A stretch of 64,000 nt of DNA from a virus: IMG/VR virus record IMGVR_UViG_3300029422_000001, positions 46,744 to 110,743 of that record. One strand, 5' to 3'. The position numbers were made by a program, and so were the translations under genes. This document shows, piece by piece, positions 4,696 through 63,364 of the stretch. The notes below the pieces were generated by a model. The model saw nothing but the letters and a program-made list of their open reading frames with translations. It made no database searches and had not been told where the DNA came from. The stretch's first letter is position 1. Every line of letters begins with the position of its first letter.

Positions 4696-5226
4696 ATGAG
4701 AAGGAGATTTTTTAATGCTGCGGATAATTTCGTGGGAGGATGTTATAATAAGTTATCCAATGAAGATATAAAAAGGCTTGGAGGAAAAAGACCTTATGTA
4801 TGTCAGTTTAATAAAATTCATATACATATAGGACCTGTATTAAAAGATCATGATTCTGATGTTAGTTACATAATGTTTAATAGTGATTGGAATAATGGTG
4901 GTTATGAATCTATGGTTTATAATCATAGCAATAATGGTATTTTTATATTAGGTGAAAACAAAATTGGTAACATAGAAGATCATATACAAGATCTAACATA
5001 TTGGTACGAATATGATCCAAGCATTAATGAAAATCAATGTTATTTTTATTATGAGGCTAATAACAGCGGAAATGCTATCAAGTTGAATGGTGAGTTTAGT
5101 GATACCAGTACTGTTTTCAACATTCCCAGCTTGGAAGTCTCCACTCTTCGTGATGGCAGTTTGAGTTTTCCGGAGATTTATATAGAAGGAATTTGGGATC
5201 CGTCATTGTATAAGTCGGTTTTGTAA
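4696..5226 (+). CDS. Small protein with MRRRFF N-terminus (paralog 1 of 3 MRRRF genes), intact
   Basis: ATG at 4696, 3 nt after the stop of the giant ORF, preceded by AAGGAG. The track ORF 4687..5226 uses an upstream GTG. The N-terminal MRRRFxN...GG motif is shared with the ORFs at 20640 and 21263. Confidence 0.6.
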   Translation: MRRRFFNAADNFVGGCYNKLSNEDIKRLGGKRPYVCQFNKIHIHIGPVLKDHDSDVSYIMFNSDWNNGGYESMVYNHSNNGIFILGENKIGNIEDHIQDLTYWYEYDPSINENQCYFYYEANNSGNAIKLNGEFSDTSTVFNIPSLEVSTLRDGSLSFPEIYIEGIWDPSLYKSVL

Positions 5227-7730: not shown

Positions 7731-7738
7731 TAATTTTG
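7731..7738 (+). promoter_or_regulatory. TAATTTTG, matching the Bacteroidota sigma-A -7 box (TAnnTTTG), upstream of tnpB
   Basis: Exact consensus match about 22 nt upstream of the ATG at 7760. Confidence 0.3.
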
Positions 7739-8968
7739 TATCATAAAGCTGATAAGATAATGATCAAAGGTTACAAATATAGATTAGATCCTACACCGGA
7801 ACAGATTGTCCAAATGGAGAAAACATTTGGCTGTTGTAGGTATGTCTATAATTGGGCTCTTGATCTTAAAATCAAAACTTATCAGGGTGAAAAACGATCT
7901 TTGTCAGCGGTTGATTTATGCAAGCAGCTAACGTTACTCAAAAAAGATGATAACCATCTTTGGCTAAATGAAGTATCTAATGAATGCTTGCAACAATCTA
8001 TCCGCTGTATGGATAGCGCTTTCACCAAATTCTTTAGAGAACATGCTGGTTTCCCAAAATTCAAATCCAAACATAGGGGCAAGAACGTTTTTAAGAACGT
8101 AAACTCTGTTAAGTTTGATTTTGAAAACAACAGAGTTAAGATTCCTATCATTGGTTGGGTAAAGTTCTTTGCCAATCGGTCTTTTGAAGGAAAGATTGGT
8201 ACGATAACAATATCCAAATCATCAACTGGTAAGTTCTATGCAAGTATCTTAATAGATGACGGAATCCCTAATCCTGACAAGTTTGTTATCAATCCCGATA
8301 CGACAGTGGGAATTGATGTAGGGATCAAGGATTTCGCCGTCCTTTCCAACGGCCAGGTTTTTAGTAATCCGAAGTATTTTGAATCTGCGCAGAAAAGATT
8401 AGGATGCTTGCAAAGAAGAATGTCTCGTAAAAAGAAGGGAAGCAACCGATACAAGAAGGCAAAGCATGATGTTGCTGTTTGTCATGAACGGATTCGAAAT
8501 TGTAGACAAGATTTCTTACATAAGGTTAGTAAGAGGATAGTAAGTGAGAACCAAACTATTATCATCGAAGATCTTAATGTAGGAGGTATGTTGAAAAATC
8601 ATTGCCTTGCTAAAGGGATTGCTTCTGCATCATGGAGCGAGTTCTTTAGGATGTTGCAATATAAATCGGATTGGCGCGGTGTTAATTTAATTCGGATTGG
8701 AAGATTCGAGCCGAGTTCTAAGATGTGCGGATGTGGGTATATCCATCGTGATCTGAAGTTATCGGATCGTGTATGGACTTGTCCTGAATGTGGTGCCGTC
8801 AATGATCGTGATTTACTTGCAGCTAATAATATTAAAAAGTTTGGGTTAGAAAAACAGAATCTTCTACCCCAAGAAAATATTAACAAGACACCGGTGGTGA
8901 ACCGGGAAGGGGACGTGGAGTTGCCTACGTTGGTAGGAACGGTGAAGCGTCAAAATGTACTGGTGTAA
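7736..8968 (+). CDS. tnpB: TnpB, IS200/IS605-family RNA-guided endonuclease (OrfB); no TnpA partner
   Basis: N-terminal KGYKYRLDPTPEQ motif. RuvC-I TVGIDVGIKDFAVLS, RuvC-II IIIEDLNVGGM and a CxxC...CxxC zinc finger (CGCGY...CPECG). RuvC-III NDRDLLAANNI. The track start is TTG; a likely ATG lies at 7760 (MIKGYKYRL). Confidence 0.85.
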   Translation: MYHKADKIMIKGYKYRLDPTPEQIVQMEKTFGCCRYVYNWALDLKIKTYQGEKRSLSAVDLCKQLTLLKKDDNHLWLNEVSNECLQQSIRCMDSAFTKFFREHAGFPKFKSKHRGKNVFKNVNSVKFDFENNRVKIPIIGWVKFFANRSFEGKIGTITISKSSTGKFYASILIDDGIPNPDKFVINPDTTVGIDVGIKDFAVLSNGQVFSNPKYFESAQKRLGCLQRRMSRKKKGSNRYKKAKHDVAVCHERIRNCRQDFLHKVSKRIVSENQTIIIEDLNVGGMLKNHCLAKGIASASWSEFFRMLQYKSDWRGVNLIRIGRFEPSSKMCGCGYIHRDLKLSDRVWTCPECGAVNDRDLLAANNIKKFGLEKQNLLPQENINKTPVVNREGDVELPTLVGTVKRQNVLV

Positions 8969-9374: not shown

Positions 9375-9941
9375 ATGGATAAAGTTTCTGTTTTTGAAAG
9401 TTCGGATTTTGGAGAGCTTAGAATTATTGTAGATCCAAAAGGAGATGTTTGGTTTGTGGCGTCAGATGTGGCTAAATCTCTTGGATATATAAATGCTAAA
9501 GATGCGGTAAAAAGACATGTAGATGATGATGATTCTATGCTTTTGCAAGTATCTGATAATCAATGGGGCGTAAAACGATCTATATTGAAAACCAGATATA
9601 TAGATAGTATAAGAATAATTAATGAATCTGGTTTATATTCTCTTATATTATCTTCAAAATTAGAGTCTGCTAAGAGATTTAAGAAATGGGTAACATCTGA
9701 GGTTCTTCCTTCTATTCGTAAAACAGGAGAATATAAAACAAGTTCCGGTGGAAAGGGAATTTTGGTCCCTGACTTTTCTAATCCGGCAGATGCAGCAAGA
9801 GCCTGGGCTGATCAGTATGAAGCTGCTCAGAGAGCTATAGCTGAAAAATCTCAGGCAGAGGCAGAAGCCGGCGTTCTGATGGGACGTACATGGGGTACGG
9901 TGGTGGTATTTACGACCATTACGGTATGCATGAGAAGATGA
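9375..9941 (+). CDS. Bro-N (BRO/antirepressor N-terminal) domain protein
   Basis: FESSDFGELRIIVDPKGDVWFVASDVAKSLGY matches the Bro-N signature (F..IR....G..WF.a.DVa..LG). Confidence 0.7.
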   Translation: MDKVSVFESSDFGELRIIVDPKGDVWFVASDVAKSLGYINAKDAVKRHVDDDDSMLLQVSDNQWGVKRSILKTRYIDSIRIINESGLYSLILSSKLESAKRFKKWVTSEVLPSIRKTGEYKTSSGGKGILVPDFSNPADAARAWADQYEAAQRAIAEKSQAEAEAGVLMGRTWGTVVVFTTITVCMRR

Positions 9942-10875: not shown

Positions 10876-10898
10876 ACCTATTTTTTTTTCAATACCAG

Positions 10899-11257: not shown

Positions 11258-12478
11258 ATGGTGTACGTACAAGACATAAATGGTAAACCTATGATGCCAA
11301 CAACGAGGCATGGTAAGGTTAGGAGACTGCTTAAAGATAAAAAGGCAGTCGTTGTGAACCTATGTCCGTTTACCATCCGATTAACGTACGTCACATCTGA
11401 TTACAAACAGGAAATTGTGTTAGGCGTTGATGCTGGAACTAAGCATGTTGGTCTATCAGCTACAACGAAAAGCAAAGAACTTTACAGTAGTGAAGTGATC
11501 CTTAGAAATGATATCGTAGATCTTTTGTTTACCAGAAGGGAGCTACGAAGAGCAAGACGGAACAGGTTAAGATATAGAAAACTTCGTTTTAATAATAGAA
11601 TAAAAAGCAAGCGTCCAGGATGGACAGCACCTTCGGTGAAGTACAAAATAGACGCCCATATTCGTGTTATTGATAATGTTTTTTCTATACTGCCTGTATC
11701 TCGTATTGTTATTGAAGTAGCTCAATTCGATACTCAAAAGATTAAGAATCCTAATATATCGGGTAAAGAATATCAGGAAGGTGATCAACTTGGGTTTTGG
11801 AACACAAGGGAGTATGTTTTAGCAAGGGATGGGCATAAATGTCAGTATTGTAAAGGAAAGTCAAAAGATAAGATCCTTAATGTTCATCATCTTGAATCCC
11901 GAAAAACGGGAGGTGATTCCCCTTCTAATCTTATTACCTTATGTGAAACTTGTCACAAAGAATACCATAAAGGTAATATAGATTTGAAGATCAAACGGGG
12001 ATCGTCGCTCCGCGACGCGGCCGTAATGGGGATCATGAAATGGAAGTTGTATGAAGAACTGAGATCCAGATACGACAGAGTTTTTATGACGTTTGGTTAC
12101 ATTACGAAACATAATCGGATTAAATATGGGATTGAAAAATCCCATACATCCGACGCGTTTGTCATTTCTAAGAATATTAATGCGAAACGAATCGAACGTC
12201 AATATTTAAAACGTTTAATTCGTAGACATAATAGACAAATACATAAAATGAAAATTTTAAAAGGGGGGAAGAAGAAAAACAATCAAGCTCCTTTTGAGGT
12301 TTTCGGTTTTAGGTTGTTTGATAAAGTGTTGTATAACAATAAAATATTCTTTGTTTATGGAAGGAGAAAATCAGGGAGTTTCAATATCAGGGATTTCAAC
12401 GGAGAAAATTCAAAAGATGTTTCACGCAAAAAGTTTAAACTCATTAGAGGGAAGAGGCATCCGATTATATTAAAGTAA
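11258..12478 (+). CDS. iscB: IscB, OMEGA RNA-guided HNH/RuvC nuclease (Cas9 ancestor family), 406 aa
   Basis: N-terminal PLMP domain (GKPMMPTTRHGKVRRLLK). RuvC-I GVDAGTKHVGLSAT and Arg-rich bridge helix RRELRRARRNRLRYRKLRF. HNH DGHKCQYC...NVHHL...NLITLCETCHKEYH and RuvC-III SHTSDAFVIS. Domain order and spacing match characterised IscBs. Confidence 0.85.
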   Translation: MVYVQDINGKPMMPTTRHGKVRRLLKDKKAVVVNLCPFTIRLTYVTSDYKQEIVLGVDAGTKHVGLSATTKSKELYSSEVILRNDIVDLLFTRRELRRARRNRLRYRKLRFNNRIKSKRPGWTAPSVKYKIDAHIRVIDNVFSILPVSRIVIEVAQFDTQKIKNPNISGKEYQEGDQLGFWNTREYVLARDGHKCQYCKGKSKDKILNVHHLESRKTGGDSPSNLITLCETCHKEYHKGNIDLKIKRGSSLRDAAVMGIMKWKLYEELRSRYDRVFMTFGYITKHNRIKYGIEKSHTSDAFVISKNINAKRIERQYLKRLIRRHNRQIHKMKILKGGKKKNNQAPFEVFGFRLFDKVLYNNKIFFVYGRRKSGSFNIRDFNGENSKDVSRKKFKLIRGKRHPIILK

Positions 12479-14003: not shown

Positions 14004-17000
14004 ATGACATCAACGTGTATTATTAAAAGAGATAATAAAAAGAAAGTTGTTTCTGTCTCTACCAGATCAGGGGACAGGTCTATGTTGTTTGATAAAATAG
14101 CATCTATTCCTCTTATGGAGAACAGAGAACGGGCTACTACTGTTTTTAAAACCGTATTTTCTAATAAGTTCTTAAAGGCTTTTGGCGACTGGAGAAAGAG
14201 AGTGCCTATCAACAAACCGGCTTATAATAAGGTAAAATCCAACATCGATCTTATTCCGGAAGCCTATAGAGAAAGGGTGCTGGATAAGGCTTCTAAGATG
14301 AGTAACCCTGTTCTTGTGTCAAAATCAGATGCACCTTATGAAATCCAAGAATCGGGCTTTGGATTCTACAGCCAAAATCTGGGTGATAATATTATGTTGG
14401 TGGATGTTATGGTTCCTTCAAGTATTTCCGTGCCGGAAGGACCTGGAATAGACGCCGGGCAGTATCTACAAGATGCTATATCTTCGGACTTCACTCCCGT
14501 ATCTATGGTACAGGATAAGGGTGTTAATTATATGGTTATAAAAGACGGTCTTAAGATATTTAGCCCAGAAGAGTTACCACAGACAGATTCTAATCCTGTG
14601 GGTGTAACGTATCAGACCGGAGAGCCTCGTTTGTTTTTCATGAACGATCGTAGTCAATTATTTGAAGATTACGGAGAAGCTCTTCGCTCTGGCGGGAATG
14701 ATATTAGAATAGGATTCTTATCAGGCACCGTTCAAGAATCTGCCTGGGATGGCGTGGCAGGCATTACTTACAAAGCTGGAAAGTATGTTCTTAATAATCC
14801 CAAATCTTTTATACCGGTCATGACCGCTTCTGCTTCTACTTCTTTATCAACAAAAGGTGGTATAATTAACTACCTTATAAAGAAAGGTCTTTTGTCCGGA
14901 TCTAAGATATTCGATCCTGAAACAAGAAGCTATTATCTTACAGGAGAAGGTCATACAGGACAAATTAGACTTTTCAATTCAGCCTTATCATACACCGAGC
15001 TCCGTAATCATTTTGGTTCCGATGTTTCCATGAACGACCAAGGTATGATAACCATAAGCTCGTTGGATAACAGTAAGGTAACTATGAGACTCGCCACCGG
15101 AGGAACGGAAAGGATTAGTAGGGAACAGATAAAGAACGATCTTAAGTCAGGAAGATACAATGAATTGGACGCCAAGTACGATCATTTTGATGCGCTTGTA
15201 GTTTCATTCATATTAGAAGACAACGATCTTTATGCTGATACTAAAGCTAAGATCGTATCGGATTATAGCAGGCAGGAACGTGACCAACGAAATTCTATTG
15301 TCGAGATACTGAAAACGCTTGGAGTTAGTGTCATAGGTATGACCGACTATATAGAGAAGTATCAAACCAAATACGGGCATGAACCTTCTGCTAAGGCATT
15401 GGCTGATATTGCCAATAACGTAATAGCAGTTGGTGAAGATGCTACTTTATCTGATTTAGTAGAAGAAACAGCCCACTTCCTTGTAGAGGCATACAGAGAT
15501 CAGAATGCTGTTGAGGCTGTTCTGCAAGATGTAGAAGGTACGGAAGAGTGGAACCAATATGCAGGTCAGTATTATAATACATACGGTAAGGTATATGAAG
15601 GAGCTGAGCTTGATAATGCTGTTAGGAGAGAAATTCTTGGAAAGATCCTCGCCAGGGAGATGCAGACCGGCACAGCACAGGCGCCGGTAGAGCCCACCTC
15701 CTTCCTGGGGCGCGTCCGGCAGCTTCTCTCTGGAATCGTAAGCTGGCTTAAATCAGCTTTATCAACCCAAAGACAAGATTTGAATAACGTTATTAAAAAC
15801 ATTCGTGATCTTGCCATTACTGACATAGATAAAGGATTTGACACCTCTCTGTTAAAGGATAATGACTTTACATTATACTCCCTTTCTTCTATGAACAAGA
15901 ACAAGTTTCTTGAGTCTAAGATCAGATCACTAAGAAAAACATTAAGAGACTTACGTCAGATAAGCTCTGATAGGGCTGTAACTACGTCTATGACCCTTGC
16001 GCAGCTTAAGACCATAGAAGATAAGATAAATAAGGTAGAGACCGAAATAGACAAGAATGAGATGGCGGCTGCCATGAACAGCATGATCTCCACAGCCGAA
16101 GCTCAGGTCAGATACTTAAACAATGTCGTGAACACCATTCTTCATGGAGATACTAAAGACGGTAAGCTTCACTTCAATACCAATGATCGAAAGAACGTAG
16201 ATATTATCAACAATCAGGTTCTTCCGATCATGAACGATCTTCGAGGATATATCCGTAACAGAAGTACCGAATTTGATGAACGTGAAAAGCAGGATTATAC
16301 AAATAGGATCAATACCGTCATTGCCGACATTAATGGTATTCAATCTGATATTAAATCAGTACAAGACCTTGATGAAAGTACGTTGCTTGATAAGTTAATG
16401 AACGAACTTCATGTGCCGGCAGATAAGGTAAAGAGAGTAAAAGAATTTTTTGACAAAGTTCAACATGATGTCTCTTGGATAAGTAGGTGGTTTGGTATAT
16501 TAGAGCATTCTTCCAGTCCGTTCAATAACGCTCTTGGAGCTATGATTGCCAAAGACAATTACAATGCGATGGTGAATGCCCAGCCCGCCATATCCGACTT
16601 CCTGGCATATGCTAAAAAGCATGGTTTTAACAAATCTGAATTTGAAAAACTGCTTCAGAAAGTAGACGGCAAAACTTCTAATTACCTTCGTAGTGCTCTT
16701 GATATGGCTAAATACGATCGTAATAAGAAGCTGGCGCAGATGCGAGCGTTTGCGACTGCCATGAACATAGAGATATCAGAAGAAGAAATTGGTGATGTGG
16801 TTGACAATAACCGTAATTACGTATTTAAAAGAGAAGTAGTTGACAAGGATGGAAATACGGTTACTGAAAACGCTAAATTCAAACCATCGTCTGATAGAGT
16901 TAATACCGATATTTTTACCATCGAGCAGGAAAAGATTTATACAGAACAGATGGAAAAGTGGGATGCTGAAAATTCGGAACTGGAATTTAGCGAAAGTTAT

Positions 17001-20000
17001 GCCACAAGAATGGAATCCATATACAAAAAGGCTAAAGAAGAATTAGGGCATCCGGTTTCTCAAACAACCAAAGAATACCTTAATGCTCTATCCAGGCAAA
17101 AACGGATATTGAGGCAGCCTTTTATTGATAGCGGTGGTAATTTTGATGAGGTTGCCTATTTTAAAAGCAGCAATTACGAAGAAGAAGGACTGCTTCGTAA
17201 ACAACGTAAGGAAGCAGCTTCGGAATACATATATGTTGGTACCAGACGTGTTGAAAAAACCGGAGACCAGCTTAAGATGGCTAAAGAAATACAAGCCATA
17301 AATGAAGTTTGGAGAAAAGAATCAGATAAGGTTTCCAATGCCGTATCAGAATCGTTTTTGCAAAAATTGAGAACGATTCAAAGCGAGTCGGGAGGAGAAG
17401 CTGCGCTGAAGACACTTATGTTGGGAGGTCACCTGTCATTTAATGATCGGTTTTGGAATGATGTAGAATCGGAACAGTCGGCACGTACCGAATCAAATAA
17501 CAAGGCTTCGTATCTCAAAATGGCGCATGATATCATTAGTTCTACGACAAGTGATAGAGATGCGACTGACGTGGACTCGATTGTAAAAGATATAGAAAAA
17601 AATAAGGCCATTATCAAGGAAATAATCGGAAACAATCGCGATGTGGCTGATATCGGAGAAATTAACGAAGCGACATTTACCTCATCCGAAAGAGATGCTT
17701 TTAGGGCCGCATCTGAAGCTATTGAAGCCGATTACGCTATTTTGATAGATTATGCTAAGATGGTGGGTCTTGAAGATATTGATAAGTACCTTACTAAAAG
17801 CAGTAAGGCTGAAAACGAAGTAAATCAGTCTTATTTAAATGCTCTTGCTGACTCCAAGGAAGTGGAATGGAAGTTCGTACAACGTCATACTACGGCGAAG
17901 AAAGCAAAAAGGATTCAGGCTTTAAGGGATAAGCTGTTTAAGGCTGCTGATAACCGATATCTGTTTACCGTATCTGAAACCAATTACCTGTCAGAAAAGC
18001 TTGGTATAAGCAAAGAATTAGACGGTAGAGATTTTAGGAATGCTGTTAATGCTAAGATGGCCAGCTTATTTTTAAATAATACAAGAGAGGAGGGCATAGA
18101 AGAGGCCAATGCTATTGTTAATGAATTTGCCAGGAGCCAGGTCTTTTCGTACTATAAACGCATGGCGCCTACCGGATATGCGGCTATGATCGACAAAATT
18201 GGTCGAGGTGAGATAGATGTGGCGCAGATGGTTAAGGACGTACAAAATGGTACATCCACCCAAGATTATGGCATGGACATATCGTACCTGTCTTTCGATC
18301 CTGCAAGGGCATGGGTGGCTGAATCTGAAGCCGAAAATAGCGGCCGTAATCCTGATTATGTAAAAGATCATGGGTATGGTCATCGAATGCCTAAGAAAAG
18401 CCTGTATCGTGACGAATCGTATTTCAATGACTTTGGTATCAAGTATGATGCTGACGGTAATGAGGTTGCTACTAAAAACGTAGAGCAGTGGAATATGATT
18501 CAAAAGCTCAAAGAAATAAAAAGACAATCCCTTGATCTATATAAAGAGCAGAGTCCCAATTTGTATGCTATTCCACAGATATCAAAACAAGACATAGAAC
18601 GTATGGAAGGATTGGGTATTAACTTCAAAAATACGGTTCGTAATTTTGTATCAGATCTGTGCCTGGACAGAGTAGACGATTCTCTATATGGTAAGACCAG
18701 GCAAGGGGAAGTATATGATCCGGAAGACAGACTTAGGTCTATACCTAAATACTACATATATGAGTTGGAGAACCAAGATGATGTATCTCACGATTTTGGC
18801 TACTCTTATTCGATGCTTATGATGCAGTCATCGTTATATAACGAAAAGCAGAAGTCTATAGAGCTTGCCCAAGGACTGGAGCAGATGTTACTGAATAAAC
18901 AATTTGAAGGCGGTAAGAAGGCTGAAGCAACCCAAGCATATCAGATGTTCAGGGACTTCTTCAACGATCATTATTATGGCATTAGGATGAACACCAAAAA
19001 ACTTACGGTGAACATCGGAGGATATACGGTAGACCTTACAAGAATTATGATGGCTGTTGAAAGATTTATGTCGGTTATGAACTTGGCACTGTCTCCGTTT
19101 GTGGCAGCTACCGGCGCCCTAACAGGTCATATCAACCTCATCGTGGAATCTGCCGTAGGACAGTATATAAGCAAAGACTCCCTTAAATACGCATCGGCTG
19201 AGTTTTCACGTCTTGCGCCATCTTGTATAGCAGAAACCGGAGACATAGATAGGAAAAGCAAATTATATGTCATAGGTGAGAGAATGGGGATATTCAATAT
19301 CCGAAATCGTATGTATGGTGCCGGATACAATAGAGCGGCCAGGACCTTAATGCGTTCGCCTATGTATGCTTTTATGGAAATCCTGAACTACCCTCTTGAT
19401 CCGCAGGTTATGATTGCTACTATGGACAATGTTCGTTATTACAAAGGCCGGTTCTACACGTTCCAAGATTTCAAGATGGAAAAAGAACGTAATAAAGAAC
19501 AGAGTACCATAAAAAGAGAATGGAATGCATTAAAAGATCGTACTTTATGGAGTATGGTAGACGTCGTGGATGGGAAGGTGGTTGTAAAGCCAGGATCGGG
19601 TGTTACTGTTGAGGAAGTTGAAACCCAGATGGCTATAACCAGAAATCAAGTTCGTAGCTTGTCGCAGATATGTAACGGATCTTTGAATGAAGAAAACCGA
19701 ACTGCCGCATCGCGCAACTGGATAGCCAGGTTCATGACCGCCCACCGAGGATGGTTGGTGCTGGCGGCTCAACGTCTGTGGAAAAGACGTGGCTTCAATT
19801 TCCAGACAATGCAAGAAGAGGAAGGACTGTCAATTACGTTAAAGAATATGATAGCCAAAACATTTAGCTTAGCTTCCGAGTCTGGTATGAAAAACATCAT
19901 AGATGCCTGGAACGAAAATAAAGACAATATGAATGAGGTAGAGAAAACCAATATAAAACGTCTCAGTGTCTATGCCGGCACGTTCCTTATCATGCAAGCC

Positions 20001-20426
20001 GTATCCATGCTTCTTGCCGGATGGCGTGATGATGATGAAAACGAAGAAAGTTGGCTTACTCAATTTGGATCCTATGTCGGATTCAGAACCATAAACGAAA
20101 TAGCTTCACAGATGCCGTTTATTATGGAGCTTAACGTTGTAGATATCATTAACGACCCGTTTGTCATGGGGCGGAAGTTGAAGGATCTTACTGATCTTAG
20201 GAATTACTCACTTGATAAAGTAACATCCGGCACATACAAAGGAGAGTCTAAGTTATTTAGGCAACTCGCCAAACAGACGTTTATCAAACAATGGTATAAT
20301 ATCAAGACGCCGGAAGACGTAGCGCGCGCCTATAATTGGTGGCAGCAGACGAACAACAAGTCAATGATGTTCTTCATCGGCGCCACTCCTGATTCGGAAG
20401 GGGACGATGATGTTAATTACAAATAG
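14004..20426 (+). CDS. Giant virion/ejected protein (2140 aa). Candidate crAss-like virion-RNAP-type protein by size and context only.
   Basis: Uninterrupted 6.4-kb ORF. No canonical DxDGD motif was found by eye. The size class (about 2.1-2.2k aa) and the neighbourhood of giant genes resemble virion-packaged RNAP modules of crAss-like phages. Confidence 0.8.
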   Translation: MTSTCIIKRDNKKKVVSVSTRSGDRSMLFDKIASIPLMENRERATTVFKTVFSNKFLKAFGDWRKRVPINKPAYNKVKSNIDLIPEAYRERVLDKASKMSNPVLVSKSDAPYEIQESGFGFYSQNLGDNIMLVDVMVPSSISVPEGPGIDAGQYLQDAISSDFTPVSMVQDKGVNYMVIKDGLKIFSPEELPQTDSNPVGVTYQTGEPRLFFMNDRSQLFEDYGEALRSGGNDIRIGFLSGTVQESAWDGVAGITYKAGKYVLNNPKSFIPVMTASASTSLSTKGGIINYLIKKGLLSGSKIFDPETRSYYLTGEGHTGQIRLFNSALSYTELRNHFGSDVSMNDQGMITISSLDNSKVTMRLATGGTERISREQIKNDLKSGRYNELDAKYDHFDALVVSFILEDNDLYADTKAKIVSDYSRQERDQRNSIVEILKTLGVSVIGMTDYIEKYQTKYGHEPSAKALADIANNVIAVGEDATLSDLVEETAHFLVEAYRDQNAVEAVLQDVEGTEEWNQYAGQYYNTYGKVYEGAELDNAVRREILGKILAREMQTGTAQAPVEPTSFLGRVRQLLSGIVSWLKSALSTQRQDLNNVIKNIRDLAITDIDKGFDTSLLKDNDFTLYSLSSMNKNKFLESKIRSLRKTLRDLRQISSDRAVTTSMTLAQLKTIEDKINKVETEIDKNEMAAAMNSMISTAEAQVRYLNNVVNTILHGDTKDGKLHFNTNDRKNVDIINNQVLPIMNDLRGYIRNRSTEFDEREKQDYTNRINTVIADINGIQSDIKSVQDLDESTLLDKLMNELHVPADKVKRVKEFFDKVQHDVSWISRWFGILEHSSSPFNNALGAMIAKDNYNAMVNAQPAISDFLAYAKKHGFNKSEFEKLLQKVDGKTSNYLRSALDMAKYDRNKKLAQMRAFATAMNIEISEEEIGDVVDNNRNYVFKREVVDKDGNTVTENAKFKPSSDRVNTDIFTIEQEKIYTEQMEKWDAENSELEFSESYATRMESIYKKAKEELGHPVSQTTKEYLNALSRQKRILRQPFIDSGGNFDEVAYFKSSNYEEEGLLRKQRKEAASEYIYVGTRRVEKTGDQLKMAKEIQAINEVWRKESDKVSNAVSESFLQKLRTIQSESGGEAALKTLMLGGHLSFNDRFWNDVESEQSARTESNNKASYLKMAHDIISSTTSDRDATDVDSIVKDIEKNKAIIKEIIGNNRDVADIGEINEATFTSSERDAFRAASEAIEADYAILIDYAKMVGLEDIDKYLTKSSKAENEVNQSYLNALADSKEVEWKFVQRHTTAKKAKRIQALRDKLFKAADNRYLFTVSETNYLSEKLGISKELDGRDFRNAVNAKMASLFLNNTREEGIEEANAIVNEFARSQVFSYYKRMAPTGYAAMIDKIGRGEIDVAQMVKDVQNGTSTQDYGMDISYLSFDPARAWVAESEAENSGRNPDYVKDHGYGHRMPKKSLYRDESYFNDFGIKYDADGNEVATKNVEQWNMIQKLKEIKRQSLDLYKEQSPNLYAIPQISKQDIERMEGLGINFKNTVRNFVSDLCLDRVDDSLYGKTRQGEVYDPEDRLRSIPKYYIYELENQDDVSHDFGYSYSMLMMQSSLYNEKQKSIELAQGLEQMLLNKQFEGGKKAEATQAYQMFRDFFNDHYYGIRMNTKKLTVNIGGYTVDLTRIMMAVERFMSVMNLALSPFVAATGALTGHINLIVESAVGQYISKDSLKYASAEFSRLAPSCIAETGDIDRKSKLYVIGERMGIFNIRNRMYGAGYNRAARTLMRSPMYAFMEILNYPLDPQVMIATMDNVRYYKGRFYTFQDFKMEKERNKEQSTIKREWNALKDRTLWSMVDVVDGKVVVKPGSGVTVEEVETQMAITRNQVRSLSQICNGSLNEENRTAASRNWIARFMTAHRGWLVLAAQRLWKRRGFNFQTMQEEEGLSITLKNMIAKTFSLASESGMKNIIDAWNENKDNMNEVEKTNIKRLSVYAGTFLIMQAVSMLLAGWRDDDENEESWLTQFGSYVGFRTINEIASQMPFIMELNVVDIINDPFVMGRKLKDLTDLRNYSLDKVTSGTYKGESKLFRQLAKQTFIKQWYNIKTPEDVARAYNWWQQTNNKSMMFFIGATPDSEGDDDVNYK

Positions 20427-20562
20427 ACGAAGAATATCAGACTTCCATTGTTTTTGTATGATTCCAATATGTTATATTAGCATCGTCAAAGAGTAGATTA
20501 TGCGTTTTTTGTTCTTACTTGAAAGGTTATGTAGGTTTATTTTTTCTGAAATTGTTTTCTTA

Positions 20563-20604
20563 CCGGTTCTCAGTCAGAGATGATAGGGAACCGGTTTCTT
20601 TTAT
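20563..20604 (+). terminator. Hairpin ccggttc-N19-gaaccgg plus TTTCTTTTATGTT
   Basis: 7-bp perfect inverted repeat about 140 nt after the stop at 20426. Confidence 0.45.
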
Positions 20605-20639
20605 GTTGTCAATTATTGCTATCTTGCAAACAAAAAATC

Positions 20640-21258
20640 ATGAGACGAAGATTTCAAATAGGGATGGGGGGTAAATCCCTCGCTTATAATCAATAAAGGC
20701 ATATACATCCAACATGTAGATGGAGGATTATATACAAAAGAAAATTGGTCTAATAAAGGATATTCCAATGATCTATGCAATGGAATAGCTCTTGTAGATA
20801 AAGTGTGTTTTGTTATAGCCACCGAATATATTGGCACATTTCGTTGGGGTAAGGATGGAGAAATAGACAATATATTTGCACAAGATAGTTCTCATATGGA
20901 GACCGTTAAAAAGGATTATTGGGGGCGTGAAAATCAGAATGCGTATCTTAAATATGATACCAGTAATACAGATTACGCTTTTAATAAAGCTAATAGCTAT
21001 TTATTTAAAAATGGTCAAAATGGATATGTAGGTGGCGCCGGAGAGTTTTTTTTGATATCATTGTATGCGAATGAAATAAACGAATGCCTTTTAATGGTAG
21101 GAGGTACGATAATGAGTAATAGAATGTGGACATCCACTCGAAATGAAAAATTTACCTATTCGTGGTATTATGATATAAACATCCAAGGAGATCATTTGGA
21201 TACAGGTTCAAGGGGTAGTTCACGTTATGTCCGCCCCTTTACTGAATTAATTTTATGA
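20640..21258 (+). CDS. MRRRF paralog 2: DUF1566/Fib_succ_major-like (lectin-fold) protein, frameshifted at a G6 tract 25 nt after the ATG
   Basis: ATG at 20640 gives MRRRFQIGMGGKSLAYNQ*. With 5 Gs instead of 6, the frame continues as ...GMGVNPSLIINKGIYIQHVDGG... into the track ORF 20803..21258. That ORF ends ...MWTSTRN...RYVRPF, which resembles the DUF1566 YWSST...VRxV tail. Confidence 0.5.
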
Positions 21259-21262
21259 AATT

Positions 21263-21999
21263 ATGAGAAGAAGATTTGAAAATAATGCTAAACTATATGA
21301 GTATAAGATAGTTAGCGATTGTATAGGGGGGGGGTAATCGTAGAAGGAAAGAAAGTAGGCACCATTCCACAGGGCGGGCAATTTATCTTTCTGTCTAAAA
21401 AAGAACGGCTGGATTCCATAAGTGTCCAAGGCGGTGTTCCAATGGAAGATAGGCAAGAGATCGATAGTCAGGTTGATACGACAGAGGAATTGCTTGAACA
21501 GGATTCGGTGGTTCTTGCTATTGCTTTAACAACCTCTCCTTATTATGGATTTAGAGTAAGTGTGATAGCACCTGATGAGTTTACGCTAAGAACAACCAAT
21601 AGGATTAATAGAACCTTTTTAATAACAAGCTTTACTCCACCTGCTGCTATATACGGTGTAAACTTTAGTGATCCTATTGTCCTTAATTATGATAGTTACC
21701 AATATGAGATGTCAGATCTTGTAATTGATGGACCTCATGATAGAATAGTTAGGGCAGATCCTAATTTTACTTGGGCTATAAGATGTACAGATGCCGACTT
21801 TACACCTTTGCCATATCCAGAATCATGGTCTGGCCAAGGTTTAAATTCTATGTTCTTATCAGAAATGAAACGTCTTACTCCTGGTGATCATCATGTATCA
21901 TATACAGCTTATATTAATTTGGACTTGATAGATGATGGCGGAAGTAAAGTTCATACTGAATATCTGATATTAGAAAAAACACTTAATTTTACGATATGA
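21263..21999 (+). CDS. MRRRF paralog 3, frameshifted at a G9 tract (21326-21334) after codon 21
   Basis: ATG at 21263 gives MRRRFENNAKLYEYKIVSDCIGGG*. One extra G fuses it in frame to VIVEGKKVGTIPQ..., the track ORF 21319..21999, which otherwise needs a TTG start. Confidence 0.5.
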
Positions 22000-22045
22000 C
22001 AACAATCCCCAACCGTACGCCTATTGTATGGTTGGGGATTGTTGT
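22000..22045. terminator. Perfect 15-bp-stem hairpin (caacaatccccaacc-N16-ggttggggattgttg) at the convergent +/- junction. Likely a bidirectional terminator.
   Basis: Exact inverted repeat read directly. Lies between the + gene ending at 21999 and the - gene ending at 22089. Confidence 0.55.
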
Positions 22046-22644: not shown

Positions 22645-23877
22645 TTAACAAAATACATTCGTAATCCTTACCGGGTTAAACAATAACCCTCTATCAATTA
22701 TCCTTTGAATGGATTCACAGGAATCACCGACTACTTTTCTCATAATGTTTAATGCCCCATTTACATCAGCATTTATGAGTTTTCCTACTGAAGATTGAAA
22801 CAATCCTCGTTTCTTCCTTCTTCCTAAATAGCTATCATGTTTTCCTATCTTCTCAAATGCCAATGAATCACATTTTGAAGTATATGATTCTTCGTGAATA
22901 ACTATTTCAATACCAGATAATTCACATTTATATTCTAAATAACTTACTAATCTCGCAAAAGGGATTTGGGTAAACTTTTGGTTGTTTCTTTTTCCCATGT
23001 TTACTCCAGTTTTCCATCCCTTGTTATAGCCTACAACTAATTTTGTTATCTTAGAATCGATAAGTAAATCAACTATCTTTCTACTGATTTTATGAAAGAC
23101 ATCTTCTATGTACTGTTCTCTATCATAATATAATTTCTTTATTCGTTTTGTTGTTCCTTTTATCTTTTGTAAATCTTTGATACTATTTAATTTAGCAAGT
23201 GTTTTATTAAATCTCTGATTATATGATTTAACAAAATTACCGCTAAAAAGATAGGTAAAATCTTCACTAACTAATGTTACAAGATTGTCTATTCCTAAAT
23301 CAATAGAAGCAACTTTTTCTTCCCTACCTTTAGATACTTCAGTATCTTTTACCTCATAAATGATTTCTATCTTATATCCACACGCTAATGGTTCTATTCT
23401 AATCTGTTTAAAATCTTTAATCAAATCAGAATACTTTTCATATTGAGGAATATCTATTGAAAGATTTTTTGATAGGATTATTTTCCCATCTTTTATTCTG
23501 CAACTCTGACTCGTGTAATACAAATTAAACTCAGAACCTCTCTTCCTGTAATTAGGAAGACCTGGTTTTTTCTTATACTTATTAGGATGTTTTTTGTAAT
23601 CTTAGACCGATTTGTAATAGCTTTTTATATTCTTATCAAGAATACGAAGAACTTGTTGAGAGCATTGAGCCTTTAGTAATCTGTAATTAATGTCTCCATC
23701 TAAGTTCTTGGTATTCTTCATGATAGAATCAAGTTTAAAATAGGATAACCACTTATCTTCTTTAGAAAGTGTTTCTCTGAAAATATATAATGCCTGATTG
23801 TACAAGTTATTGCTAATCTTGCACAGAGATGATATATTTTCATTGTTTCCTATGTTGAACTTGTATGCTAATCTCAT
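22645..23877 (-). pseudogene. tnpB: TnpB copy 2 (IS200/IS605-family) interrupted by a single in-frame TAA (minus-strand codon at 23602-23604). Otherwise a full-length, about 410-codon reading frame.
   Basis: Track ORFs 23602..23877 (MRLAYKFNIG...) and 22645..23523 are in the same frame: ...YKSV*DYKKHPNKYKKKPGLPNYRKRGSEFNLYYTSQ... RuvC D (ASIDLGIDN), E (IHEESYTSKCD), zinc finger and D (NADVNGALNI) are all retained. Confidence 0.75.
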
Positions 23878-32843: not shown

Positions 32844-32874
32844 AACTTTTAAAATTTAATTGTTGATAAAAAAA

Positions 32875-35142: not shown

Positions 35143-35155
35143 ACGTTTCTTTTTT

Positions 35156-36289
35156 TTAATATACTGACTGTTCTTCCTTTACCTCTTGTTCTTGATCTTG
35201 ATTGCTCGTAACGTCTTCCACAGTATAGAGCTTGGGCGGCGTCGGCGGCTGGTTGGGGTTCACGAACTTCGTCCCTCCCTCCCCGTACATCCATCCATGC
35301 CCCGGCAGGATCTCTGGGTGGATTGTATTAGTAAGCTCTTCCATACTAACTTGCCTTACCTTCAGTATATGATGAAACACCAGTCCGGCTGTCCTGAATG
35401 ATGTTTTGTTTTCAGTTTTAAACCGGTCAAGAGTCTGATACCAGTCTTTTCCAAATATCATATACTTATCTAGCCCGTACCGACGAGGATTATGCAAACC
35501 TATCATCAACGTACATAATTGACCCAGCGTATCAGACTGGTAAAAATCAGAAAGACGAGGCGGCTGCTCTTGTGGGCTTTTTATCCTTCCTTCTATCTCT
35601 CTATTGAATTGGGATATGATGAGGAAAAATATGTTTTTATATACTAATTTAGCCTCATTCATAACCGCCACCAAATCATCTATAGCCGACTTAGGATCTA
35701 ACCCCATTCTTTTTATCAAAGCAATATGATCGACTTTAAATATTATAAGACGTTTGTCTTTGTGTTTGGTAGCTATATGATACACAGCCGCCTCAAACTC
35801 TTTTACCGTACACGGAGCATCGATGTATATTATATTATTCCTGATTTCACCTTGAAGGATTTCAAACATCCTCATCTCTTCTACTGTATTAGAATCTTGC
35901 CTTCTTAATATTTCAGGAGCTCGCTTTTTCATATCTTGGCTCATTCTACGAAGAAGAAGATCTTGAGGATTCATTTCGAACTCGCAATTAACAAGAAAAT
36001 AATCTTCTGCTTGCGGGTTGATCATCGGATTCATCACATTTTCCAATATCTTTTGGGCCACATACGATTTACCTACAGATGGCCGGGCTCCTATGGCAAT
36101 AGCGTGCTGAGGAAAAATACCTCCAAGTAAAGCTTCGTCAATATAATCGTATCCGGTTTTAGCGGGGATAAGCTCTCCCCGCCTGTATTTCAATATATTC
36201 TCATACGCCTCTTCCATAACCTGTTTAGAGGTCTTGAATATCCTTCTTATATCTATCCTATTTGCTATCTCCTCTTGCATTTTTGTCAC
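35156..36289 (-). CDS. DnaB-like replicative helicase, RecA-fold C-terminal domain (377 aa)
   Basis: Walker A GARPSVGKSYVAQ, typical of the DnaB C-terminal domain. Downstream motifs fit the DnaB/gp4 family. Confidence 0.8.
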   Translation of the reverse strand: MTKMQEEIANRIDIRRIFKTSKQVMEEAYENILKYRRGELIPAKTGYDYIDEALLGGIFPQHAIAIGARPSVGKSYVAQKILENVMNPMINPQAEDYFLVNCEFEMNPQDLLLRRMSQDMKKRAPEILRRQDSNTVEEMRMFEILQGEIRNNIIYIDAPCTVKEFEAAVYHIATKHKDKRLIIFKVDHIALIKRMGLDPKSAIDDLVAVMNEAKLVYKNIFFLIISQFNREIEGRIKSPQEQPPRLSDFYQSDTLGQLCTLMIGLHNPRRYGLDKYMIFGKDWYQTLDRFKTENKTSFRTAGLVFHHILKVRQVSMEELTNTIHPEILPGHGWMYGEGGTKFVNPNQPPTPPKLYTVEDVTSNQDQEQEVKEEQSVY

Positions 36290-36536: not shown

Positions 36537-36588
36537 GTGCTTATATTTTTTTTGATTAATAATAGCACAAAGATAGGCAATTCGCGCC

Positions 36589-47641: not shown

Positions 47642-48496
47642 TTAAAAATCAATTACCGCCCGAACCATGTCTCCGATGTGCTTGTTGCCGGTGCCCGTGA
47701 GGCCACTGGAGAAGACCACGTACCACGCGACGGCCTGGCTGCTCTCAGTACTGGACCAATACCACGTCGAGGAGAGGGGAGATGCCGAAACATAAGTGAA
47801 TGCTTTGTTTAGTTCGTCCATATAATGGGCCATTAAATTTAATTGACCAAGAGATGGTATATACTCGCCATCTTCCAGCAGATTTCTCAATTTTGGATTT
47901 CTGGTTACAAGGCGTTCCGTATTGCCGCGTCCGTCAATGTCAAACAGCGCATCACATTCACGCTCGTAATATGTCCCACTTCCGGATTCTTCACGGCTAT
48001 CATCGTCAAGCAATTGTATGATATCATGCTCCGTCAGTGAGATTGCAAATGACATGTATCTGTGCTTCAACCCAATGTATCGTACACAATCTTTGGAGTT
48101 ATCGCCGGTAAACGGCTCTGCATGTCCGTCTTTGTAGATTATATACAGTCCGTCAGTTGACTCTTTCTTATCCTCTTCGGATGGTACTCTGTTTTCACAT
48201 GTACATTTCTCACTTTTGGATCTTACGATTATATTCAACTCATTTAATACATGATCCCTGATGACGCTCTCGCACGCTTTTCTTACAAAATCATGATCTC
48301 TTCGTTTGAGTTCATCATTCACCATGCATCTGATCCAGTTTTCTATCTGGTTGTCACCTCCATATGTATTAACCATGTACCGTTTTACGTGTTTCTCCAA
48401 TAACGGCTCTATGTTTTTGATTATATCTTCTTTGGTAAGGTGAAGTTCATTTAATATACAGTTCCTTACTGCCCTGCATTCTTTACTTGTGCTCAT
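47642..48496 (-). CDS. Protein with C-terminal DUF1566 (Lcl-like, C-type-lectin-fold) domain (284 aa)
   Basis: C-terminal GEYIPSLGQLNLM...YWSSTESSQAVAWYVVFSSG...MVRAVIDF matches the DUF1566 hallmarks (WRLPT..EL, YWSST, VRxV). Confidence 0.5.
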   Translation of the reverse strand: MSTSKECRAVRNCILNELHLTKEDIIKNIEPLLEKHVKRYMVNTYGGDNQIENWIRCMVNDELKRRDHDFVRKACESVIRDHVLNELNIIVRSKSEKCTCENRVPSEEDKKESTDGLYIIYKDGHAEPFTGDNSKDCVRYIGLKHRYMSFAISLTEHDIIQLLDDDSREESGSGTYYERECDALFDIDGRGNTERLVTRNPKLRNLLEDGEYIPSLGQLNLMAHYMDELNKAFTYVSASPLSSTWYWSSTESSQAVAWYVVFSSGLTGTGNKHIGDMVRAVIDF

Positions 48497-62983: not shown

Positions 62984-63190
62984 GAGAGTGCCCACCCTCT
63001 CCCCCTCTCCCCCTCTCCAACTCCCGCTAATCCTCCGGCTTTCCGCATAGAACCCACGCCCTACCGCCTCACTACCGGCATACGGAGAGCGCTACAAGCT
63101 TATACTCTGGCATGAAGTATGGGGTGTTTGGAGATAATATCATTCCATAGAGAGAATAGAGAGTCTTCAGCCCACGCCCTACCGTCTGCT
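62984..63190. repeat. CT-rich tracts (ccaccctctccccctctccccctctccaactcccgc) plus two copies of the motif cccacgccctaccg (about 63050 and about 63170)
   Basis: Strong strand compositional asymmetry (pyrimidine-rich on +) read directly. The motif duplication was read directly. Confidence 0.5.
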
Positions 63191-63364
63191 CCTCCTATCA
63201 AAATAGATATTTAAACCTATAATCAAAGCCAATAAAGAAAAGCAAAAGACCATTACAATATTATACTGATCCGGTCCGTACTCCAACATAGAACGAATAC
63301 CAACCGACAGAAAATACAAGTCAGCTACTAATAAAAACCACCACATAAAATAAAAAAAATACAA
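63179..63364 (-). CDS. Small 2-TM membrane protein (61 aa)
   Basis: Two hydrophobic helices. The ORF lies in a compositionally biased region and is uncertain. Confidence 0.35.
   Translation of the reverse strand: MYFFYFMWWFLLVADLYFLSVGIRSMLEYGPDQYNIVMVFCFSLLALIIGLNIYFDRRSRR

Follow-up and report, generated by a model that had tools for sequence, protein, structure and literature searches.

Poly-G tracts of variable length in two MRRRF genes of a crAss-like gut phage and a probable slipped-strand contingency switch

Two adjacent genes at the end of the structural block of a crAss-like phage, here called A and B, are each interrupted by a poly-G tract shortly after a conserved N-terminal module that begins with MRRRF, and the lengths of both tracts differ among related assembled contigs, in some cases between contigs that are otherwise identical. 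We interpret this pattern as probable slipped-strand, poly-G contingency switching of accessory MRRRF genes, whose products are probably located on the virion surface. The contingency reading is clean for gene B, whereas gene A fits recurrent loss equally well. Throughout, the window is the whole stretch of DNA that was analysed (64,000 nucleotides), ON denotes a tract length that leaves the full-length frame open and OFF one that closes it.

The A-B unit and its poly-G tracts

The window has a 151-kb relative from the human gut, csAssE-Sib (OR575929), with which it shares 97% identity and whose annotation includes crAss-like structural genes; on this sequence evidence the window is a crAss-like human-gut phage. 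Genes A and B are the final two genes of its + strand late/structural block. The features of this region, together with the third MRRRF paralog (gene C), are as follows.

4696..5226, + strand: gene C, third MRRRF paralog, 176 aa, MRRRFFNAADNFVGGC..., intact and without a homopolymer (GTG GGA GGA)
14004..20426, + strand: giant virion structural protein gene, 2140 aa, matching phrog_37651 'virion structural protein' (E 2e-76), directly 5' of gene A
20562..20595, + strand: stem-loop followed by UUUCUUUU, 3' of the giant gene (fold -19.6 kcal/mol, z -4.2)
20632..20637, + strand: A6 run, 2 nt 5' of the gene A start codon, A5 to A10 in relatives
20640..20696, + strand: gene A 5' frame in the OFF state, ATG at 20640, MRRRFQIGMGGKSLAYNQ, TAA after 18 codons
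20666..20671, + strand: poly-G tract A, G6 in the window (OFF), G5 or G8 in relatives (ON)
20674..21258, + strand: gene A body, in the +1 frame relative to 20640, as read in the fusion translation
21046..21053, + strand: T8 tract within gene A, a further site whose length varies and breaks the frame
21263..21337, + strand: gene B 5' frame in the OFF state, ATG at 21263, 24 codons and then TAA, the conserved N-terminal module
21326..21334, + strand: poly-G tract B, G9 in the window (OFF) with TAA directly after it, G10 being ON
21337..21999, + strand: gene B body, in the -1 frame relative to 21263, all-beta, Ig-like sandwich
21999..22045, no strand assigned: perfect 21-bp hairpin (-35.1 kcal/mol, z -9.3), which separates gene B from convergent - strand genes

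The hairpin is the 3' boundary of the A-B unit, and the stem-loop is likely its 5' boundary. Only three ATG starts followed by three Arg codons and Phe or Tyr occur on either strand of the window, and all three lie at the 3' ends of giant + strand structural genes, in agreement with the first-pass annotation, which had also described gene C correctly as intact.

That annotation had further described genes A and B as broken near their starts by G6 and G9 tracts. This is what the sequence contains, but tract A had been placed at 20664-20669, two positions off. Tract A lies within codons 9-11 of gene A and tract B within codons 22-24 of gene B, and in both of these 5' coding homopolymers a change of one nucleotide shifts the frame. 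The two repairs that had been proposed work as described: with one G removed from tract A, gene A continues through ORF 20803..21258 as a 205-aa protein, and adding one G to tract B fuses gene B to ORF 21319..21999 and yields 245 aa (244 aa if two G's are removed instead). The N-terminus of gene A in the window reads MRRRFQIGMGG..., and tract A is largely an interrupted remnant (GGGATGGGGG); in one lineage it is an uninterrupted G10, giving MRRRFQIGGGV, with the same IGGGV motif as gene B. Stop-codon reassignment was considered as a source of the two early stops and rejected, both being TAA and the adjacent 2140-aa ORF being open under the standard code. The length of the A run just upstream of gene A, which might modulate translation initiation, was not correlated with G-tract state among relatives.

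The window is 37.6% GC, with G at 16.9%, and contains three G runs of at least six nucleotides and no C run of that length. Two of these three runs fall in the first 75 nt of the adjacent paralogs A and B, and base composition predicts ~0.007 G9 runs for 64 kb. GGG is the least used Gly codon of the window (12.9%), and none of the 29 Gly-Gly dipeptides in its long ORFs is encoded by GGG-GGG. Given this scarcity of G runs and the rarity of the GGG codon, the placement of the two tracts is far from chance. Nor is poly-G a coding necessity, since an alternative gene B cassette (B2) encodes the IGG motif as GGC GGA.

Several mobile or unusual elements lie in the same window. A truncated TnpB gene (IS605 OrfB/Cas12f-like, 292 aa; 22645-23523, - strand) is inserted beside the A-B unit; it occurs in few relatives only, with an ORF of 259, 292, 358 or 410 aa at that site, and looks like a recent, decaying insertion. 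A full-length TnpB-like gene (410 aa; 7736-8968, + strand; domains HTH_OrfB_IS605, OrfB_IS605 and TNB) lies within the structural block, with a Bro-N antirepressor-like gene (9375-9941) 3' of it. At 63001-63013 there is a C-rich short repeat, CCCCCTCTCCCCCTCTCC, unusual in an AT-rich genome.

Tract lengths and ON/OFF states among related contigs

We read tract lengths from ~140 related assembled contigs in IMG/VR, ENA, Logan and JGI; two IMG/VR scans contributed 158 loci, which reduced to ~112 distinct contigs. The first-pass annotation had suggested slipped-strand length variation and pointed to population data as the place to look for it, and in these assemblies both tracts proved polymorphic. 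Across the whole set, tract A occurred as G4, G5, G6, G8 or G9 and tract B ranged from G8 to G12. Among 107 distinct IMG/VR contigs, tract A was G5 in 84, G6 in 13, G9 in four, and G4 and G8 in three each; csAssE-Sib also has G5, and its gene A is annotated as an intact 205-aa CDS. In the 62 distinct IMG/VR contigs that carry the window's version of gene B (cassette B1), tract B was G10, and thus ON, in 21 and OFF in the form of G9 in 23 and of G8 in nine. Interrupted tracts were also present among these 62 and fell both in and out of frame, the variants G8AGG, G8AAG and G9AGG being out of frame. In-frame alleles of tract B account for ~40% of contigs. Seventeen ENA metagenome contigs gave G8 three times, G9 seven times, G10 four times and G12 once.

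The tract varies while its flanks are conserved. Nine ENA, Logan or JGI contigs that encode an identical neighbouring protein carry G8, G9, G10 or G11 at tract B. ENA contig L322 matches the window over 6.5 kb with no difference, whereas over the same length JGI contig L324 differs from it by a single G in tract B, and contigs L318 and L319 differ from each other only by two G's in tract B; some such identical-backbone pairs may be one sample assembled twice.

If the true tracts were always in frame, both genes would be intact in the window's phage and the variation would be homopolymer error in sequencing or assembly. Runs of G9-G10 are error-prone on all platforms, contig pairs that differ at the tract alone could be the same reads assembled differently, and the interrupted tracts of 10 nt are mostly in frame; any single contig may hold a consensus error at G9-G10. 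Other homopolymers of the same contig family, T8 and C5 runs, served as controls, there being no G9-G10 run in an essential gene for a like-for-like comparison. T8 runs in conserved coding regions were invariant (35/35 and 75/75), and C5 runs were unchanged in 73/74 and 42/42 cases, but the T8 tract within gene A does vary in the same contigs. With 0 of 110 T8 runs in conserved genes variable, generic assembly error is unlikely. Intergenic A7, T8 and T9 runs, by comparison, were highly length-polymorphic in relatives (T5 to T9, for example), at the following sites.

32868-32874, 35150-35157, 36546-36553 and 10881-10889: variable intergenic runs, relatives compared

Homopolymer variation thus follows selection rather than assembly noise, and slippage seems to be generally frequent in this phage lineage where selection permits. 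Several features of the tracts themselves also run against error: G8 would require a consensus error of two nucleotides, yet ~15% of contigs have it; OFF alleles are present in SPAdes contigs from ERZ827150 and ERZ826146, which carry stated coverages of 39x and 150x in their names; the same length spectrum recurs in IMG/VR, ENA, Logan and JGI; and some interrupted tracts, G8AGG and G9AGG among them, leave the frame closed. We regard sequencing or assembly error, which had been raised as the alternative to real variation, as improbable.

The third G6 run of the window (12263-12268) lies within an RRXRR + HNH endonuclease gene (11258-12478) and was invariant in 9/9 cases in which its flanks were conserved; the control scan anchored on this gene had few usable loci because of paralogs and diverging flanks, several relatives carrying a paralog elsewhere in the genome.

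ON and OFF states of gene B changed repeatedly. On a neighbour-joining tree of the 62 B1 contigs, at least 16 changes of state are needed, compared with 20.4 for shuffled states and a minimum of one, and the nearest neighbour has the same state in 35/62 cases, compared with 31 at random. Because state is almost uncorrelated with phylogeny, the OFF alleles appear to be young. The states of the two genes are independent of each other, the pairs for A and B being ON/ON in 16 contigs, ON/OFF in 17, OFF/ON in 11 and OFF/OFF in 17 (Fisher p = 0.61).

Full-length protein might instead be produced from G9 or G8 alleles during expression, either because ribosomes slip by -1 on G GGG GGG ahead of the TAA or because RNA polymerase stutters on the G run, in which case the DNA tract length would be nearly neutral and free to drift. 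The bodies of OFF alleles do stay intact, and G9, the modal allele of tract B, has a zero-frame TAA abutting the run, for which reason frameshifting is retained as a minor rival. The run, however, is not a slippery site of fixed length, occurring as G8 to G12 and in interrupted variants, many genomes (~40% of alleles) are already in frame, and a shift that repaired G9 would be the reverse of the one required by G8. Folding at both tracts revealed no downstream structure (z -0.36 for B and -0.26 for A), and thus no stimulatory element 5-9 nt downstream, and in the G6 state of gene A the stop lies eight codons downstream of the run. Programmed frameshifting, also put forward in the first-pass annotation, is therefore unsupported, and we consider recoding of any of these kinds very improbable.

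Gene bodies, cassettes and the MRRRF family

All 35 OFF alleles of cassette B1 retain an intact body of ~220 codons, and no frame-breaking indel was found in the body in any of the 62 alleles. The gene B body has accumulated 134 nonsynonymous and 32 synonymous substitutions but no stop codon, although neutrality predicts ~5. The dN/dS ratio of the body is 1.46 (dS 0.017), compared with 0.10 (dS 0.11) for the first 21 codons, 5' of the tract, and 0.024 (dS 0.14) for the last 553 codons of the giant structural gene, which served as a control for purifying selection (the spans compared for dS are 21263-21999 for gene B and 18765-20423 for the structural gene). The dS of the body is thus ~8-fold below that of the adjacent gene, which, with the higher dS of its own first codons, suggests that the B cassette spread recently across diverged backbones. 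The OFF allele G9 is no rarer than the ON allele G10, which means that no strong selection acts constantly on the B protein.

These alleles might merely record the recurrent loss of dispensable accessory genes, that is, real mutations without a selected switch, with homopolymers as the most mutable sites of genes on which selection is relaxed or fluctuates. Gene A has much of what such loss predicts. It is intact in only ~64 of 112 contigs (~57%) and is broken at the G tract in 17, at the T8 tract in 11, at both in three and by other lesions in ~14, and its body has a dN/dS of ~0.9, so that gene A bears part of the marks of a decaying pseudogene, which are secondary stops or indels and neutral evolution. 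Its T8 tract is T7 in nine, T8 in 87 and T9 in eight of 104 contigs, and so varies in 16%; T7 is present in a SPAdes contig with a name-stated coverage of 150x. Apparent alternative gene A cassettes of 137 and 144 aa were rejected, these being the T7 and T9 frameshifts. Given the variable T8 tract, the other lesions and the intact fraction, recurrent loss is as plausible for gene A as a designed switch. Loss would also accommodate the high frequency of OFF alleles in gene B and the absence of both genes from one contig. In that contig (L321, ENA ERZ28579120), an identical 162-aa neighbouring gene is kept and the giant structural gene ends 478 nt from it.

Against loss as the explanation for gene B stand its otherwise intact OFF bodies, the missing stops and the youth of OFF alleles that follows from their scatter over the tree. 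The tract itself is also retained where it need not be. Cassette B3 has a different downstream sequence from B1 and keeps a G tract, there ON at G9 and OFF at G8, so the long tract persists across divergent cassettes even though it relies on the least used Gly codon and could be replaced by synonymous ones, whereas cassette B2 has no tract. G tracts moreover accompany three different MRRRF loci. Of only four G runs of at least six nucleotides in the 150 kb of csAssE-Sib examined, the longest, a G11 (63256-63266; L329 13256-13266), lies 19 nt upstream of an MRRRF gene at 63285 (240 aa), and this site ranges from G7 to G11 in relatives. We therefore consider recurrent loss rather unlikely as the overall explanation. 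By these measures gene B apparently combines a conserved N-terminal module with a cassette that is young, evolves fast and still functions, and the OFF mutation at its tract is likewise young. Gene B lacks the marks of a decaying pseudogene, and its pattern, which includes homoplasy and intact OFF alleles in keeping with frequent, reversible change, appears to be the signature of a contingency locus rather than of decay.

Some further observations concern csAssE-Sib. The sequence after its G11 run (TAATCC) resembles that after tract B (TAATCG). Its next MRRRF ORF, at 64017, is only 32 aa long, with a TnpB gene after it. Also annotated in this genome is a diversity-generating retroelement (VR, TR and reverse transcriptase; L328 45751-47816) that targets a putative tail fibre and is located outside the window.

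In the mechanism that we favour, slipped-strand contingency switching, tracts A and B would be hypermutable homopolymers at which DNA polymerase slippage adds or removes G's. Each gain or loss would shift the frame just behind the conserved N-terminal module (MRRRF...IGGGV), so that gene A would yield either the 205-aa protein or an 18-residue peptide and gene B either the 245-aa protein or a 24-residue peptide. The switch would be heritable, reversible (as tract-length homoplasy implies) and independent in the two genes, and a phage population could comprise up to four expression types. Both genes are members of a family specific to this phage clade, in which cassette exchange affects the fast-evolving C-terminal domains. 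Their products are probably accessory virion proteins that act at the surface or in host interaction, and switching could then hedge between hosts or conditions in which each protein helps or harms.

What these proteins do was approached through profile and fold searches. Neither Pfam nor PHROGs yielded a match to A, B or C, and close homologs of the three were found in this phage clade only. Database products of 226, 221, 151 and 144 aa proved to be OFF alleles called from internal starts; because annotation pipelines split or truncate the genes in this way (the 226-, 221- and 151-aa products are public), tract state needs to be genotyped from reads. An exhaustive profile search with the gene A body identified a family of 798 representatives, some standing alone at ~220 aa and others forming the C-terminal domain of giant surface proteins of BspA-LRR/CotH type. 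Lcl_C/DUF1566 (PF07603) matches below the gathering score were obtained for 25/64 members of this family, and protein A itself had no match at all. The first-pass annotation had assigned DUF1566 to the 284-aa protein at 47642..48496, and a match is indeed there (E 2.4e-4), but at 21.8 bits it lies under the curated cut-off of 34.9; hhalign gave a probability of 6% for protein A against this protein. A distant relationship of the gene A body to DUF1566/Lcl_C is a weak, if consistent, lead and falls short of established membership.

An AF2 model of protein A from a 7-sequence alignment had a pLDDT of 28 and was unusable for a fold search; a profile from a shallow alignment had no match among PDB sequences, and one from a deeper alignment had weak matches only (4eps_A and 8q4e_A). 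Protein B was modelled as all-beta (pLDDT 74), the Gly loop being borne by a small domain at its N-terminus; the model matched only generic Ig/FN3-like sandwiches among PDB folds and, in BFVD, nothing beyond its own homolog. Pfam, PHROG and fold searches gave no specific match of A or B to any receptor-binding protein. The lectin-like or receptor-binding function proposed earlier thus keeps slight backing in the weak Lcl_C matches of the protein A family, but not in any Pfam match of protein A or in the generic Ig-like fold of B. The observations that bear on this function are the position of A and B at the end of the structural block, the Ig-like beta-sandwich of B and the weak DUF1566 likeness of A.

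Exchange within the family is visible at the tract. In two contigs the N-terminus of A is joined to the body of B exactly at the G tract, and chimeric proteins (P0063 and P0064) exist, which together indicate cassette shuffling among MRRRF genes; gene B of csAssE-Sib shares the MRRRFEN start and then continues into an unrelated 149-aa cassette. It is conceivable, though we hold the idea only tentatively, that the MRRRF family is a modular system dedicated to host interaction in crAss-like (epsilon-type) gut phages, in which the small, conserved N-terminal beta domain would serve as virion anchor and poly-G both as ON/OFF switch and as microhomology site for C-terminal cassette swaps. The A/B fusions at the tract and the chimeras would fit such a system, as would at least three loci per genome switched independently (one via an upstream tract) and the presence of a diversity-generating retroelement in the same phage lineage. 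Were this so, single phage populations would display combinatorial surface phasotypes.

Comparison with known systems

A literature search on csAssE-Sib and on crAss-like phages with homopolymers or frameshifts returned nothing relevant. We found no report of poly-G contingency switching in crAss-like phages; the kind of mechanism is already known from Campylobacter phages and from bacteria.

Poly-G tracts that are hypermutable have been described in Campylobacter Fletchervirus phages (Sorensen et al. 2021, Cell Rep 35:109214, as relayed in PMC12823448 and PMC10877375). As with tracts A and B, the runs reportedly lie inside genes of a lytic phage. Unlike those phages, the phage described here is a crAss-like phage of gut Bacteroidales with unrelated proteins, known here from sequences alone, and its tracts lie inside a conserved N-terminal leader module of a paralog family with swapped C-terminal cassettes. 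In the Campylobacter phages, changes of poly-G length within genes reportedly switch expression and create phenotypic sub-populations, in a genome that otherwise has few G runs. If our reading of genes A and B is correct, phage poly-G contingency loci extend beyond the phages of Campylobacter.

Simple-sequence contingency loci of bacteria include poly-G/C tracts in surface genes of Campylobacter, Neisseria, Haemophilus and Bordetella. They resemble A and B in having a 5' coding tract at which a change of one nucleotide toggles ON and OFF, independent loci that combine into 'phasotypes', and fast-evolving genes, but the replicon that carries A and B is viral, with a different generation structure and polymerase. 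Phages also diversify by other means, such as mutagenic retrohoming by the diversity-generating retroelement of BPP-1 and site-specific inversion of the Mu G segment. These systems and our reading of A and B have in common a phage-encoded diversification of host-interaction proteins, but homopolymer slippage in A and B would toggle genes and leave the protein sequence unchanged. The frameshifts of dnaX and of the tail chaperone genes G/GT resemble gene B at G9 in having a slippery run, a zero-frame stop and a downstream ORF in the -1 frame; those sites are fixed and conserved, whereas the gene B tract varies in length and has in-frame alleles in ~40% of contigs.

The crAss-like phages rank with the most abundant viruses in the human gut, and they persist for long periods alongside their Bacteroidales hosts, whose own surfaces phase-vary. 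A stochastic switch on the phage side, acting on accessory and probably surface-exposed proteins, would, if real, help to explain both this coexistence and the plasticity of host range, and would place genes A and B beside the contingency loci of Campylobacter phages and of bacteria.
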